A stretch of 20,000 nucleotides of DNA from Catajapyx aquilonaris (taxonomy: Eukaryota). The stretch is from positions 57,737 to 77,736 of the forward strand of contig JYFJ02001510.1 in NCBI GenBank assembly GCA_000934665.2, given 5' to 3'. The translations under genes and the position numbers were made by a program. The notes beneath the pieces are model-generated. The model was not told the DNA's origin. It was given only the letters and a program-made list of their open reading frames with translations, and ran no database searches. Positions 9,802 to 18,488 of the stretch are shown piece by piece (the stretch's first letter is position 1; the number at the start of each line of letters is the position of its first letter).

Positions 9802-10968
9802 AAGGGGTGGGGAGGGGGGTCCTGAGCAACTACAGGGAGGGGAGGGGGCGGACTGAAGTTTACTTGAACACTGCTTCGCAAGGCGCACCTGGGAGACTTT
9901 ATGCGCAATATGCCTTGGTTTCTTTTCTCTCTCTCTTTTTTTTTTTACTCATCTTTGTAAAGATTTATATATAAGGCTCGTTGGTGGCGTCCTTTTTTTT
10001 GGCGAATGGAAGTCCAGCGGGAGTTTATGCATTGTATGCACGTTATGCAAAAAACACAAAATGAAAAAATTTTCCAACTCAATAAAAAACTGCGCCTTGA
10101 AACCGTGCGAGTACAGGCGCTTTGTTCACATTGCATGCGTGTATAAACAACATCTGTATTAGCTTCGCGTCATAGGCCATTTTTTGCATTTTTCTCTTCT
10201 TTTTTTTAAAAGGAATTCTGCCTGTTTTACATTTTTTTAAGAGACCATTCCAGGCTCCCGAGATTCTTTAATCCTCATGTAGGATTCAACGCCATGTGAA
10301 GGCGTTTGTCGTATTATACTATGGAGGCGAAACGGGTTCAGGGATGGGACCAACGGAATGGAACAGTGTACATGTAGAAGTCGATATGTTACGACGTGGC
10401 TTCTCATACGTTTTGGTACCAGTTTGATGGATACGCGTATACAAATACGCGTAACCATCAGGGATGGCACTACAACTTGGTAACTTTAACTTGGCCATCG
10501 CTATATGTGTTCTCTAGGTTATAGCCTTCGACCTTTTCGACCTGCTCCTATAGTTTGTCCGGAAATAATGACGTGACACTTAATCGATGCTATTATTAAT
10601 GACGTAAATTACTGGTAATGATGTCTATAAAGGCCTCTGATATTAATTTACAGGATGATTGTCAACGGTTTCAGGCCATCAACCAGTGTTCCTAACAGTG
10701 TAGTTGGCCCAACATAAATTTCCAAAAGGCGGGGGGACTAGTTGGCGGTCTCTGCCGTGCCATACACACTTGTTAGGAAGCATACGTTAATTCTCATTTG
10801 GCACATTTTTTTTCTCTCTCTCTTTTTCAAAAACCTCCTGTGACACTAAGCTGCTCAAATTAGTCTATAGTGCAAAAGTTGAGTCCTGAGCGCGAACACA
10901 AACCGTGCGCGGCTAATAGGCTTAATAAGCAAGTGCTTCATTGTATACCACTGTCAACTATAGTCCAA

Positions 10969-11527: not shown

Positions 11528-11659
11528 TCACATGCTTGGGTCAGATCCGGCTCCTCCTGCCCCCTTTCCGCCTTCTCCGCCTCCTCCACCGCCGCTGCCG
11601 TCGTCGAACGGGGAGGCGTTCGTGCCCCGGGGCGAAAGGCCTCGGAAGTCCAGGTTGTA
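11528..11659 (-). CDS. CTNNAL1: Alpha-catulin terminal coding exon
   Basis: On -, tttttcttggttctaattcccgcccgcAG|TAC has a ctaat branch point and is phase 0. Encodes YNLDFRGLSPRGTNASPFDDGSGGGGGGEGGKGAGGAGSDPSM*. It continues ...CFLCASK in frame and resembles the YxLDF + Gly-rich tail I recall from insect alpha-catulins. Confidence 0.85.
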   Translation of the reverse strand, partial: YNLDFRGLSPRGTNASPFDDGSGGGGGGEGGKGAGGAGSDPSM

Positions 11660-14600
11660 CTGCGGGCGGGAATTAGAACCAAGAAAAACTTTAGACTCAT
11701 ATTATCTTCTGTGAGAGGGGGGTTTAGCCACACCGTCTTGCTCTCTATTCTAGATATGCAGCTCATTCAAGTCAGTTTCTGGTTAGGTGCACAAGTCAAA
11801 AAAAGCCGTTTCCTCGACACTAATCGCATGTTTTTTTGTCATTTTTGGTCGGCGGAAACGATGCCACCTGCGGAAATGCAGCGTTAGAGCGAAGAGTCGG
11901 ACAATATATGATTCCTGTTCGCTGTTTTTTAGGACTTTTGATAGGAAGGGGGTGGAAGTGCCGATAAAAGGCGGAGCATAAATTTTAATGGCTCTGCTGC
12001 TGTGACGATCGACGCAGTGTTATCTTGCTTTTATATTGAACGTTTGCAGCCTTTAACAAGGGACGAGCTTGGTTGGGGACACGAGCGGAAAAAAAAAGTG
12101 CAAATGCTTATGGATATTTACTCTGGATGATCAGTTAAGCCGCGGCCTTTGAAAAGGACGCTGCTAGTCACTAGGCCAATTTCAGGTAATTCCATCCAGT
12201 CATTACATGTCAGCAGGGGCATGGTGGTAAAACAACCCTATTTGCAAGAAATTACCGGAAAATGATGTCCATTGAATGGCAAAAATACATGTAAAGACCA
12301 GAATCGCTGTCACAATCGAAGGATTGAATATCCTTTGATAGCTGCATAGTCTACTAGTGAGATCATTTATTTTCAAATATTTTTATAGCGGACTGGCTCG
12401 TACTGGCTGATGGTCACTCATCCATATTTTTGTAGAATGTTTTGCAAATTTGGATAACATGGTAATGATTTTGAAGTGTAATTACGTCCCTCCCAAATGA
12501 GGTGCTTTGGTCCAATATTGAAAAACTGTATGGTTCACACTGCAGTTCTGCTTTCAAGTCCATAGAAATCCCCCTGGTTCTAATATTTTGACCCGAATGA
12601 ACCCAGAAATGGAATCGTACATAGTCCGACTCTTTTTGAGCAGCGTCGCAATGCCTTTGCCTCATCCAAAAACTGGGCTATATGCATCCACCAGCAAAAA
12701 AAATAAAATAAAAAAATAAAAAAGGCACAGACTTAATAACGATGGTAGTAATGGACGGGAGAAGAGCACTTTGCCATTTATCACGTCTTGTACTGTATAT
12801 ATAGAGGTAGAGAGGTATATACCGTATAATCTGGAGCACTGCGGCGGAAGCTAAGAGGAGGGAGGGGGGTCAGTGAACTCGTATATATATAGATAACATG
12901 ACCAAATCCATTTTTCAGCTGGGGATCTAAAGACAGAAACCCAGTTAAAAAGTGACGATACCCTGGAAAATGGGGGAGAGTTTAATGGTTTTTCTCTTCA
13001 CGTGTGGGCGGGGACTTCTGATGGTGTGTCAGTGCTGTGCAGGTTAGATGCAGTGTTAAGTCGATTATTATATGGTCATGTTAGTCGCTTCCCAAACTTT
13101 GCCGCGACCAAGGGCGATATTTTTTTAAGTATTTACTATAATAATTATTTTTCTCTTTATGTATTTTTCTTCCCCCCCCCTCATGCAGTTTTGATTTACA
13201 GTATGCTTCTCCCGGTTTTGCATGCTGTGCACAAAATGTTGGATGATGAATGATGACAAGCCCAATACTTCAGGGTGTATTGTACTGTTGTGAGAGGGGG
13301 TTGCCCCCCAAAACTCTCTTGAGCGCCGATGGTCGCGACGGGTGCACATATTATGTCGTTAATAAATGGCAAGGGCTGTTCGGTTACGTGACTTTGGTCT
13401 TAAAGATATTCCGGAATGCGTGCATTCAACTGTGTGTGAATTTACCTTATAAAGTGACTCAGCTGCACGGAAAGCGGTTCCGAGAAAGGCACGAATGTGA
13501 TTTTGACAAGGATTTATTCCACCTGCACTGATACGCTACGCCTCTATGAATACCGTGAGTCTGGAATGGAAGAAGCACGGTACACACATATTTTTAAACA
13601 GAATTGGCACCGCATGACTATTTTTATTGTTATCGGTATTACTGATGGGTGGGTGGGGGTGGAGAGAGAAAAAAAAAAGAAAAGTGCCGGTGATGTATAT
13701 ATGCGGAGCGAATGATTATCAGGGCCAGCGCCATAAACACCAGAATACTCTTCGATCGCAGTGATTGCAATTAGCGGGCAGCACCGGAGCCTAATTATCG
13801 ATGATGAATGGGAACCCGGCTGGTGATGGATGAGTTGGTGGAGAGGCAGAGACTTGCGCCTGTATTATACAGAGCGAGCTCGAGCAACAGCGCCTTGCAT
13901 GGCTTTTTCTTTTTTTCTTTATTCGTTTTTTTCCAGAGAGAAAGAAGATTGCCGGGAGAGTACAAGTGGGGCTGAAGAACCCCAATTTTGGCCCACTGGC
14001 GGAAGTGCCAGGGACTTACTATTGAATGAGCCCAGGCAGGGAGCACCACGAGGAGCCTCAGGGGAGAATCGATCAGAATACTGCGAGCGCCTGGCGAGCG
14101 CCTGGCGAGCGCGAGCGAGTTCTGCCCCCTGACGTCACAGGCTTGTGGGCCAAACAGAAGCCGGCGAGTTGCTCGTACACCCACGAGTGGCCAATCAGCT
14201 CGTCCGGCGAATTTACTCACGCGGACCGATGTCCAATCAAAGGAACCACTCTCTCGGATAGTCTCATCTCTCTCCGGAAATTTGGTCTCTTTCCTGTTTC
14301 ACTTGTAAATGCGGCTGGCATCTGGCCCCCGAGCTATGGAGAGGGTATTTGGGGGAGGGCCAACCCCGGGTCCCTGGGCGGGGCGGCCCCCGCGGGTGAG
14401 CCCCGTCTCTTAGGGGCTCCCGCTATACCCAGGTACAGGACATACAACAAAGCGGCGGCGGCTGCGGCGGCAACAAATTTGGCTGCTGCTGACACCTGTC
14501 ATACACCAGGCTAGGAGACAAGCAGGTGCAGGACACAAGGTGGTGACAGTGTCAGCTCTTTTTTAGTTTTACATTTTTTTTTTTTTTTTAAAGTGGCGGT

Positions 14601-14676
14601 GGCGATGGCGGTGGCGTTGGCGGCAGTTATGTACATTGTTTTTTTGTCTAAATTTGGATAAGACGCCGCGGGCTAC

Positions 14677-14781
14677 CTTTCGCAGAGTGGCAAGCGACCC
14701 AGCGGGTGCCACGTTGGTTGCTGGTGCGGACAACCAGTCGTCCCCATCCAGATCCACTCTCGACGGCATGATCACGGCGTG
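14677..14781 (-). CDS. CTNNAL1: Candidate in-frame cassette exon of alpha-catulin
   Basis: ccctcttacAG|CAC ... AAG|gtagcc, 105 nt, phase 0/0, no stop. Encodes HAVIMPSRVDLDGDDWLSAPATNVAPAGSLATLRK. The donor is weak. Confidence 0.45.
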
Positions 14782-14927
14782 CTGTAAGAGGGACCGGCGC
14801 CTGCTCCCCAGTGCCATATCCCCTCTCCGTACTCACCACCACACAGCACACACCCACACACACACAATCCACACTACAGCCCGCGGGAGAAACCGAGCTC
14901 GCTTGATGTGTGAACTGCCTCCGCTTG

Positions 14928-14948
14928 TTAGACTGTAGGCGGGCCCGC
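14928..14948 (-). CDS. CTNNAL1: Candidate short alternative terminal exon of alpha-catulin (AGPPTV*)
   Basis: Strong polypyrimidine acceptor ccctcttcctctccctccAG|GCG GGC CCG CCT ACA GTC TAA, phase 0. Confidence 0.55.
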   Translation of the reverse strand, partial: AGPPTV

Positions 14949-15924
14949 CTGGAGGGAGAGGAAGAGGGCTGGAATTTCAACCTGCCTGCCCTCCCACTAT
15001 AACCACACACGGTCCAAATGCCATATGTGCACTCGCCATCTGCACACAGCCTCCCCTGCACGTATCCAGTTTCCCATGATAATTACAATTTCCTTTCACT
15101 GCTGGTGACATTTAGACTCTCTGACAGCCTACTGTTCCAATGAAAGGTCATTCAGCATTGTTACATTATATTCAGGGCATACATCAACCTGGAGTAACTT
15201 TATTTAAGGTGCCCTTTCACGTAGTCTGCAATAATCGGAGTGTTTGTGCTACTTTACAAGAGCAAGCAAGAATAAACAGTGCGTTACAGTATATACCATC
15301 ATGGAGCCACTTTCCTAGATGAAAAAGCTGCCGATTGCAAGTGCCCATCACCTATTCAATAAGTGGTGCATAAATAGCAGTGGGTTCGATGCAATTTGGG
15401 GGCGCCAAGTGTCATTCATTATTCACTCCACTCATCGGGCATATAGCAGTCCACGTGACAGGCCGTTCAAGTTACTGTTTAGTTAACACATTCTGTACCG
15501 GTTGAATGCGGCTCCACTAAATTCCCTCTGCCCCATAGCAGCCTATCCTCGCCCGCCTGCTGCTGCCTATAGCTCTGCTTGCACAGGGGAATAATGAGAG
15601 TGACGGGAGATAAATATAAAGGCGGGAGACGCAGCTTGCCTGCCCCGAGGCGGACTAGAGGCTCGGTTTCTCCTGGGAGTAATTGGAAGGGCGGCGGGTG
15701 AGGTGGGGCGGCGAGTCATCAGAGGAGAGAGATATATCCAGGAGGAGATATAGCACGAAGGAGGCCATGAGTGTGTGCATGGACGCTGCCGCCTGTTGGA
15801 GACGCAGCAGGGCTCTGTTGGAGGAACATTGGGAGGGACAACAGGGAGGACTCGAGGTGCGGCAGAGGAGAGATTGGTGGTAGGTGGGGAACCTGATGGA
15901 GGAACCCTAGGGGCTGAAGCTCAC

Positions 15925-16131
15925 CTTGGAGGCGCAGAGGAAGCAGGTGGTGACCACCTTGGAGATAACGTTCATCAGTTCCTTGGTCTGCTGGATGACT
16001 GCGTCCACTTTGGTGAAGGTGGCGGCCTTGCCCACGGTGGGGTTCTTCACGGTGAACTGCAGCTGCTGGACGTAGGTGGGGATTTTGTCCAGGAACTCCA
16101 GCAGCTCCTTCTTCTGGGGGCCGCTTGGTAC
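15925..16131 (-). CDS. CTNNAL1: Alpha-catulin exon, C-terminal vinculin-homology region (upstream exons lie beyond the window)
   Basis: ctccgttggcAG|GTA ... AAG|gtgagc, 207 nt, phase 0/0, high GC3. Encodes VPSGPQKKELLEFLDKIPTYVQQLQFTVKNPTVGKAATFTKVDAVIQQTKELMNVISKVVTTCFLCASK, with the alpha-catulin-type GKAATFTKVD..I..TK.LMN signature. Confidence 0.9.
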
Positions 16132-18488
16132 CTGCCAACGGAGCGATTTCCAACATTGCTATACACTTGCCTATAGTCACCCTCAACCAGACGTGATTAC
16201 GTCAAATCAGTCAGGAGCAGTCCACTCATGCCGACACTATTCAATGAACCGTGCACTGTAAGCTGCTGATTTGCTGTGCAAACATTTTCCGTGTTAGAGA
16301 AGAATATATTGATCATGAGAATACACCCGCGCCACTGCAGCTAATATTGTAAATCAGATGATATGTCCATTACGGCGAATGTCCTGAACGTCCTCACAGC
16401 TGGAGACTGACAACTGCACTCTCCAAAAGTGATCTTTATTCAGCAAACCTCCACGTGTATATACGGTCCATTAATAATTTAAGGGGTCTACTTGGATGGT
16501 ATGAGCAAAGGGGCCAGGAGCAAAAGTGAAGTCATTACCTGTCATTCAAAATGCAGCTTTAATATTAATGCGCTCTATTGCTGCTTTGCCCATTTCGGAA
16601 CGTTATCTATATATTGCGTCTCTGAAGATATCCTGCCGCAGACACAAGACTGGCACTGGACGAATTGAATCAATCTCCCACTTTTGTGTTGTAACACTGT
16701 GAGCAATTTCAAGCCTGCGGGGAATCTAATACACGCGTTGGACAATGTAGGACACTCAGCCTACTGCGAATATAGCGTTACCATGTTCCTGGCAGAATAA
16801 TGCAGGAACTACGTTCTTTCTGAACTTATCCAGTGAAGTAATACATAAGCTAATGCTTTTTGATGGAATAGGGCATAACGGCCCATGAATAAGGAATATG
16901 TAAATGGACGTCTGATCCTTTTTTATGTCAGCTTGTATAGCGCAGTGCCTAGGAAAATGCTTTTGAATACTGCAACGGTGCCTCGAAGCTCCTCACACCG
17001 CTTGTTACGAAGCACAAAAGACAACCCAAGGGCACTAATGGTAAATTAATTTGACGCTAATGAAAGCATATTATGTTCTCGAATCCTGCGCTCGCGAAGG
17101 TTGCTCCAGAATATTTTGGCGTCCATCGTGCTGCGCCTTATCATCTCCGCCAGTTGAGCATGCATATATCCTCATAAGCATATGTGGCATGCCTGCTGCA
17201 ATATGGATTTCAGCAACAGCCAGCAAAATATTTATATTAGTTTTAGTTGTATTCCAAGTGAATCGCCACTTCCATTTAAATGTAAAAATAATCGAACACT
17301 CTCCTATATTTTATGTGAACAAAACTCCTATCCATATGTCAACAACCTATTTCCTATCAATTTTACACAGTGGAAAAATTCCAGAAAGAGACTTTCCTGA
17401 AGTGCATCAAATATACCAGTACATCACTAACATGATAACATCGCGAGACTAATGGTCAGATCTAATCCCACCCTCTAACCTGTTTGTGCCCCCGTTTTTC
17501 CGGATGGCAAAATGCTACGCACACTGTCGGTGTAACTCACGTGCTAAAGATAGAGAAATGATATATCACACTTGGATCCGAACCTCACCGGGGCTCGAAT
17601 GTAAGACCGGTGCCAAATTTCACGCCGAAATCGTCTGCTCTTCCCGTACTCCATATTTTTTTTTGACGGCATCCAGTCAAAAACTGAGATCGATCGTGCC
17701 CCCGGCCCCCCTCTCCTATACCTTCTATCCCCACCCCCCTTAATTTTTTATCCCCCTCAGCGACATAAAATGCTGCAGGCTGGAAGGAGCCCGTCGTGGT
17801 TTGCATCTTAAAGAAGGTTCGATCCGTCTGAGAAGTAGGACTTTGGCCCTGCGGCACCGCCCAAAAACACACCTCCATCCGTGTTATCGCCGATGCTTCT
17901 TGCGATTGATTTTGCCCGATCTGCGATTTAAAACACGTCTCTTGTTTTTTTTACGCGAGTATTCAAAATTCCAGGCGCATGATATACATAATGTCCGATT
18001 TTCCGGCTTCATTATAGGATGTCGTGAATAATGAGCCTTCGAAATTACCTGCAGTATCAAGTGACATGGACGTGAACGAAATATTGTCTTTAGGTGCAGC
18101 CGGTACCGGCAGTGGCGTCGCTATAGGCAGGTGCGGGGGATGCGGACCGCACCGGGTGCCACCCTCAAAGGGGGTGATACCCAAGTGATGTGTGAAATTT
18201 TTTGGAACCCTTGAGAGAATGTATGCTTTCTTTGCGGCTTCCACACATCGATGGAAACTACGGAAATAATTTAAAGGTGTACGAGGTGTGATCAAAAAGT
18301 TCCTGGACTGTCGACTACATACCGTGAAATCCAGTGGAGGTACGAACTTGTGACGTTAGGGGGTGCTAGGTACACCTTTCATCTATATTAGTCTGAAAAT
18401 TTTCGTCTTCATAGGTGCACATGTTTCCGAGTTTCGGGAGTTTTCTTGACACCGTGTTCTTGTGCTTCTGCGATTTTTCGAAATCGCT

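Follow-up and report, generated by a model that had tools for sequence, protein, structure and literature searches.

In the passages of Raker et al. (2009; PMC2724269) that deal with Drosophila Atrophin (CG6964), an intronic stem incorporates the stronger, proximal one of two acceptors and so equalises the use of the two sites. The complementary boxes are described there as short and 100% conserved across 12 Drosophila genomes; they were validated by disrupting and compensatory mutations, and the exon extension that results from use of the proximal site is in frame. For Drosophila Nmnat (CG13645), the corresponding passages of PMC2724269 describe a stem in intron 4 that loops out the proximal acceptor, leaves the distal one nearer to the donor and sets the C-terminus of the protein. 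Here we describe a comparable arrangement in the alpha-catulin gene of Catajapyx aquilonaris: a predicted stem of about 86 base pairs (bp) on the minus strand of a 20,000-nucleotide stretch of contig JYFJ02001510.1 (assembly GCA_000934665.2, positions 57,737 to 77,736). This stretch is called the window below, and all coordinates refer to it. As in the two Drosophila genes, the intron is alternatively spliced and offers a proximal and a distal acceptor, and the predicted stem covers the proximal AG (pair probability about 0.97).

The locus resembles Atrophin in that the stem lies over the apparently stronger, proximal acceptor, both acceptors are used and use of the proximal one lengthens the exon. 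It differs from Atrophin in the size of the stem, about 86 bp over about 950 nt, in that the stem is predicted from sequence, and in that the extension brings a stop codon. With Nmnat it shares complementary boxes around the proximal of two acceptors and a choice that sets the C-terminus of the protein, whereas in the window no AATAAA or ATTAAA follows the proximal site and an RNA contig continues into a cassette exon. Nmnat also figures in later MIMOSAS work.

The sequence-only reading of the window had named Dscam1 and 14-3-3zeta as precedents. In the Dscam1 exon clusters and in 14-3-3zeta, one docking site pairs with several competing selectors, and the exons are mutually exclusive. Long-range intronic base pairing that influences exon choice in an arthropod gene is common to these systems and to the proposed stem, but the window has a single pair of arms, with two acceptors and one cassette exon. 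Atrophin and Nmnat are the closer precedents, and Dscam1 and 14-3-3zeta a loose comparison. Literature searches, by titles and abstract openings, returned no paper on RNA structure in alpha-catulin splicing. The terms 'catenin', 'catulin' and 'CG2987' have no occurrence in the text of PMC2724269, nor have 'CG2987', 'catenin' and 'Cat-r' in its searchable supplementary files (all but file 4).

The predicted stem and the specificity of its arms

The sequence-only reading had proposed six strictly nested helices, A to F, and a script check of the minus strand over 14700-16000 found all six complementary segments at the positions given for them. Helix A (15756-15742 with 14825-14811) consists of 15 bp with 2 G.U pairs, helix B of 10 bp with 2 G.U, helix C of 13 perfect bp and helix F of 10 bp with 2 G.U; helices D and E, read by eye, each pair with one bulged base. 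We then have to distinguish the segments that are present from those that are predicted to fold. A partition function computed on the minus strand from 16131 to 14677 (1455 nt) gives mean pair probabilities of 0.83 for an extension of helix A, 0.965 for A, 0.99 for B and 0.97 for C. Helix D (15655-15648 with 14943-14950) has probabilities of 0.94-0.97, and the AG of the proximal acceptor is paired within it at about 0.97, in line with the earlier placement of this helix directly over the acceptor. Helix F, by comparison, has a pair probability of 0.02, and E gives way to a local hairpin in which its 3' strand meets the pyrimidine tract (14954-14960 with 14989-14995, 0.71-0.89).

Helices A to D, with extra pairs occupying the gap between B and C, are thus predicted to be one interrupted stem, and the pairing is smaller than first described. 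At a probability above 0.5 the stem comprises 86 bp (52 G-C, 23 A-U and 11 G.U; 15763-15645 with 14804-14952) and closes a loop of 692 nt, not the loop of about 520 nt proposed earlier. The observation that non-Watson-Crick positions are G.U pairs on the transcribed strand holds: besides the 11 G.U pairs there are three 1x1 mismatches (C.U, C.U and U.U) and no A.C. The minimum free energy (MFE) structure of 15930..14760 contains an almost continuous long-range stem (15728-15644 with 14819-14953). In a 3.5-kb context (16400..12900), the MFE structure keeps all pairs of the A-extension (5/5), A (15/15), B (10/10), C (13/13) and D (8/8), and none of F (0/10).

The 5' arm (15645..15763) is C/U-rich, starts 161 nt after the donor at 15924, holds one strand each of the A-extension, A, B, C and D (pair probabilities 0.83-0.99) and has weak self-structure (-0.165 kcal/mol per nt). 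The 3' arm (14804..14952) is G/U-rich and spans the proximal acceptor; 22 nt separate its end from the distal acceptor AG further downstream. Between them, the 692-nt loop (14953..15644) holds the segments claimed for E (15622-15634 / 14986-14997) and F (15581-15590 / 15052-15061), neither of which is predicted to form. The two intronic segments are therefore able to form a stable stem over well above 150 nt, the span being about 690-960 nt. A blastn self-match at 14937-14950 marks a perfect 14-nt palindrome that straddles the proximal acceptor and the start of the extended exon; helix D could face competition from pairing of this palindrome, either locally or between molecules.

Shuffling the dinucleotides of each arm separately gave minus-strand duplexes of -136.3+-8.0 kcal/mol, against -179.8 for the native arms (z -5.46, 0/100 as good). 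The plus-strand arms also exceed their shuffles, by less (-142.3 against -123.1+-7.3 kcal/mol, z -2.64, 0/100 as good). When the 3' arm alone was shuffled in a 991-nt context, 17 kcal/mol were lost on the minus strand (-342.5 native, -325.6+-5.4 shuffled, z -3.13, 0/40), and on the plus strand 18 of the 40 shuffles were as good as the native arm (-303.0 against -302.6+-3.9, z -0.09). When the 5' arm was paired with each of 395 minus-strand windows, the true 3' arm scored best, with -174.0 kcal/mol in the nearest scan window and -179.8 over its exact extent; the corresponding plus-strand scan places it 6th of 395. The next non-overlapping minus-strand partner (11750-11480) reaches -135.6, which leaves a margin of about 38-44 kcal/mol. 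This second-best partner is no better than the shuffled arms. A docking-site/selector system was rejected, with a single outstanding partner among the 395 windows and no cluster of mutually exclusive exons.

A scan of pairs of 150-nt windows lying 225-1575 nt apart (4484 pairs on the minus strand, mean -50.7, sd 16.2; 4142 pairs on the plus strand) gave -133.1 kcal/mol for the stem arms on the minus strand and -97.7 for the same arms on the plus strand. Only 11 pairs score better than the stem, all from an inverted repeat in the DNA at 1.3-2.8 kb that is unrelated to it, and the next best values are -113.8 (minus) and -111.2 (plus). We conclude that the complementarity of the arms is specific and strand-specific, and that composition still supplies most of the energy, since shuffled arms already reach -136 kcal/mol. 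An Rfam search returned nothing above gathering score; the matches to H19_3 (20.4 bits against 46) and EBv-sisRNA-1 (19.1 against 58) lie far below these scores and were taken as chance.

The inverted repeat that leads the scan (1348-2784) has arms of 361 nt (1421-1781 / 2346-2706), 94% complementary and 564 nt apart, and outer arms of 86 nt (1348-1433 / 2699-2784), 86% complementary. It forms by far the strongest long-range duplexes of the window (-265 kcal/mol for 150-nt windows) and looks like a foldback or terminal-inverted-repeat transposon.

Splice joints of the alpha-catulin gene

The exon upstream of the intron (15925..16131, minus strand) encodes 69 aa ending in VVTTCFLCASK. In a protein search these 69 aa are 83-87% identical to arthropod proteins that are named alpha-catulin and carry PF01044, and on this similarity the host gene is alpha-catulin (vinculin/alpha-catenin family, Pfam PF01044), as had been recognised from the sequence alone. 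Splice joints were taken from contigs of run X5, a run of unknown kind that we treated as RNA-derived because its contigs carry spliced joints; being contigs of low depth, they show the presence of forms, not their ratios. One of them covers 15925-16134, and the exon ends in the donor AAG/GTGAGC at 15925/15924.

This donor is used with three acceptors. One X5 contig joins 15925 to 14781, skipping 1143 nt (k-mer depth 2.3), and another joins 15924/15925 to 14947/14948, skipping 976 nt (k-mer depth 3.9); both joints are GT..AG on the minus strand. In addition, loose contig ends at 15925 and at 14677 carry an identical 27 nt that map to 11633-11659, so that a third form runs from the donor to 11659 and skips both other acceptors. 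The exon beginning at 14781 (14677..14781, minus strand) is a skippable cassette of 105 nt, in frame. It encodes 35 aa (HAVIMPSRVDL...LRK) between an acceptor AG at 14783-14782 and the donor AAG/GTAGCC at 14677/14676. The coding part of the terminal exon lies at 11528..11659 on the same strand (YNLDFRGLS...SDPSM, stop TGA at 11530-11528), and the same tail is found in ant alpha-catulins. The intron that holds the stem had been described as the last of the gene; the joints of 15925 and 14677 to 11659, the start of the true terminal exon, correct this.

The acceptor within helix D, which the sequence-only reading had proposed as an alternative 3' splice site, is used, as the joint to 14947/14948 shows. 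This proximal site (14949..14975, minus strand) consists of a pyrimidine tract and an AG at 14950-14949, and its exon starts at 14948. The sequence that follows, AGPPTV and then TAA (14930-14928), had been taken for a short terminal exon. It is a 167-nt upstream extension of the cassette exon (14782..14948), not a separate terminal exon, because the contig with the proximal joint runs unspliced from 14947 through 14781 to 14754 and because the minus strand has no AATAAA or ATTAAA between 14950 and 14200, the stretch that takes in the AGPPTV stop and what follows it. At positions -20 to -3, the pyrimidine fraction is 0.89 for the proximal acceptor against 0.67 for the distal one, and by this measure of the pyrimidine tract the proximal acceptor would be the intrinsically stronger of the two. 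The revised gene model, with a cassette at 14781, a terminal exon from 11659 and a premature stop behind the proximal acceptor, holds whatever the stem does.

Low-depth X5 contigs (about 1.6-3.8) also lie within introns, at 14204-14607 downstream of the cassette donor and at 15151-15339 in the loop of the stem; retained introns, pre-mRNA before splicing or carried-over DNA could account for them. At 14560-14627 the X5 contigs are interrupted by a hexamer repeat and a run of A in the genomic sequence. In the intron upstream of the 16131 exon, a contig of run X1 differs from the window over 16200-16407 by seven single bases and a 4-base deletion at 16304, and a contig of run X4 is identical to the window there. 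The X1 differences are probably allelic variation, and none falls within the stem arms.

Alternative C-termini in insect alpha-catulins

In a protein listing, homologues fall into classes according to what follows their conserved ...CF.CA[ST]K end. One class continues directly with the YNLDFRGLS... tail and corresponds to the skipped form. A second, in Hymenoptera, carries a long insert (HN.xMPQYVEL...EEDCLYP...) related to the HAVIMPSRVDL cassette of the window, and inserts containing [ML]P.RV occur in leafhopper and stick insect as well. A third has short alternative tails, in ant entries annotated 'isoform X5'; other tails are a crustacean YELRLP... form and intron read-through products. 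Because these classes match the forms seen in the window, the three-way choice has counterparts elsewhere in insects. Compared with proteins P0025-P0034, P0157 and P0164 of the listing, the 35-aa cassette (14677-14781) is a short relative of the much longer hymenopteran insert, and inserts of the pattern H..MP..V.L in other insects are homologous to it. The alternative C-terminal region thus seems to be old in insects and very variable in length.

Nineteen metagenome loci encode the exon, all of them distant (64-84% identity), and 10 of the 19 were folded. The MFE helix lists of the folded arthropod introns contain many helices each and were rejected as uninterpretable. Two ant contigs, L001 and L002, carry the whole region and are identical over a 554-nt intron; in L001 the donor (10207) is followed by the HNLIMP exon, at 10762, and by YNLDF, at 12308. 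Here, 10293-10323 pairs with 10418-10446 at probabilities near 1.0, and the 171-nt hairpin 10285-10455 has an MFE of -43.8 against -24.5+-3.25 for shuffles (z -5.94, 0/200). Within its 3' strand, a U-rich tract and the AG at 10435-10436 may form a proximal acceptor; the sequence behind it reads VTLAFYIKQ*, a tail resembling the VALASRKII of an annotated ant isoform. Read-through peptides of many ant-like contigs suggest, at the protein rather than the DNA level, that both strands of the hairpin are conserved among ants.

The ant hairpin resembles the window stem in its place, an orthologous intron between the ...CATK and HN.IMP exons, and in having its 3' strand over a putative proximal acceptor that would lead to a short tail. 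It differs from the stem in being local (about 150 nt) and AT-rich, and has no sequence similarity to the window arms; use of its acceptor is deduced from the annotated isoform of another ant, and was not observed in the L001 contig.

Among the same loci, L003, L004, L005, L007 and L009 form three closely related termite-like groups with long, nearly identical intron blocks after the ...CATK exon. The shared blocks include the first 115 nt or so after the donor and a block around a TTCCCAG/GGG site, and L005 and L007 have an extra insertion of about 300 nt. These blocks may reflect relatedness alone rather than constraint.

Acceptor choice and the possible roles of the stem

We may hypothesize that the stem acts on the choice between the two acceptors. 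It would link the C/U-rich tract, which begins 161 nt beyond the donor (15924), to the G/U-rich tract that spans the proximal 3' splice site. The AG of the stronger proximal acceptor, which leads to the premature stop (AGPPTV*), would be hidden together with the exon bases just behind it. The local hairpin 14954-14960 / 14989-14995 would cover part of the proximal pyrimidine tract. By looping out about 690 nt, the stem would also bring the donor near the weaker distal acceptor of the 105-nt cassette. In this way, as stems do in Drosophila Atrophin and Nmnat, it would set the balance between a truncated product and the full-length one that includes the cassette. Formation of the stem in vivo and its effect on splice-site choice are what we infer, and regulation of acceptor choice is the explanation that we tentatively favor.

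Several findings weigh against this explanation. The proximal acceptor is used despite the stem, and in the one RNA-like run its joint and the distal one have similar k-mer depths (3.9 and 2.3). Just 22 nt lie between the foot of the stem and the distal AG, in the region where a branch point is expected, and because of this position the stem might inhibit the distal site rather than help it; a search for YTNAY branch-point matches gave none beyond the acceptor itself. Protein searches, with best identities of 79-88% and none above 88%, yielded no close relative whose orthologous intron could be compared for conservation or covariation of the arms. The ant hairpin, local (about 150 nt) and unrelated in sequence, is an analogy and not a homologue, and as one distinct DNA sequence it does not amount to covariation. 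Between helices B and C, a GU-repeat-like tract pairs with a C-rich tract, a pairing easily obtained from composition alone, and the GC-rich neighbourhood at 14000-16100 dominates the top of the scans on both strands. Finally, whole-sequence dinucleotide shuffles of 14790-15780 are as stable as the native sequence (-342.5 against -339.6+-8.6 kcal/mol, z -0.34, 5/20 as good; z +1.43 for the same 991-nt region on the plus strand). Because such a shuffle mixes the C-rich and G-rich arms, the arms were also shuffled separately, with the outcome given above. By the first refuting condition of the sequence-only reading, a folding energy no better than that of shuffles, the region as a whole fails; the arms taken separately exceed their shuffles (z -5.46), and the native 3' arm helps the minus strand only.

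The complementarity could also be incidental. The C/U- and G/U-rich tracts would then be there for other reasons, for example as targets of splicing regulators that bind GU or pyrimidine-tract sequences, as microsatellite-like sequence or through transcription-linked strand skew, and their pairing would have no role in splice-site choice. We regard this as a real possibility, if a somewhat doubtful one. The whole-region z of just -0.34, the -136 kcal/mol already reached by shuffled arms, the GU-repeat tract in the centre of the 3' arm and the fact that both acceptors are used in any event all agree with it. What it leaves unexplained is the order-specific excess over arm-wise shuffles (0/100 as good), the rank of the true partner as best of 395 windows by about 38-44 kcal/mol, the complex, non-repetitive sequence of helices A (15 bp) and C (13 bp, perfect), and the position of the stem exactly over a verified alternative acceptor.

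Another explanation, which appears unlikely, grants the stem a function of a different kind. It may mask the distal branch-point region together with the proximal AG, so that the cassette is skipped in favor of 11659; or it may serve as a double-stranded RNA substrate of ADAR, as the sequence-only reading had suggested, or of Dicer. The distal AG follows 22-44 nt after the foot of the stem (14804-14825), and the skipped form 15925>11659 exists. An interrupted duplex of 86 bp is long enough in principle for enzymes that bind double-stranded RNA. No branch-point consensus could be placed, however, and the X5 contig over 14804-14947 of the 3' arm shows no other letters, although contigs drop minority variants and cannot reveal partial editing, and the 5' arm is uncovered. 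Nothing computational separates this explanation from regulation of acceptor choice.

That the arms are decayed terminal inverted repeats of a miniature inverted-repeat transposable element (MITE) or foldback element, or an old inverted duplication whose RNA pairing is a relic, is very improbable: plus-strand arms do beat arm-wise shuffles (z -2.64, 0/100), as a DNA inverted repeat would, and a clear transposon-like inverted repeat lies elsewhere in the window, but blastn of 14600-16000 against the 20-kb window finds the 13-mer of helix C (E 0.99) as the sole inverted match and no other copy of the arms, in context the native arm brings no advantage on the plus strand (18/40 shuffles as good), no target-site duplication was seen on reading the flanks of the stem, the DNA contigs of X1 and X4 are unbroken across 14628-16800, and the 11 G.U pairs face no A.C 1x1 mismatch where neutral decay predicts rough symmetry. 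A hand count of the DNA-level arm alignment gives seven transitions of the G.U type on the minus strand and one of the A.C type. Membership in a MITE or terminal-inverted-repeat family was rejected on the single 13-mer match, the want of further copies in the window and the flanks without visible duplication.

Returning to regulation of acceptor choice, the stem is plausibly a new example of an already known way of balancing splice-site choice. If it works as proposed, it would be a clear case of structure-controlled acceptor choice outside Drosophila, with a stem that is unusually long, G.U-rich and strand-specific; the C-terminal isoforms of its host gene are conserved across insects. It would also offer a testable handle on the balance of the three alpha-catulin forms.

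A wider hypothesis, drawn by analogy with the ants and in our view rather unlikely, is that the choice of the alpha-catulin C-terminus is governed across insects by stems that hide a strong proximal acceptor, a logic that would be conserved while sequence and geometry are not. The stem would be an 86-bp long-range one here, and in ants a 150-nt hairpin formed by two ant-conserved intron blocks. If true, such stems would be tunable switches among truncated, cassette-containing and cassette-less forms of a cytoskeletal scaffold protein.

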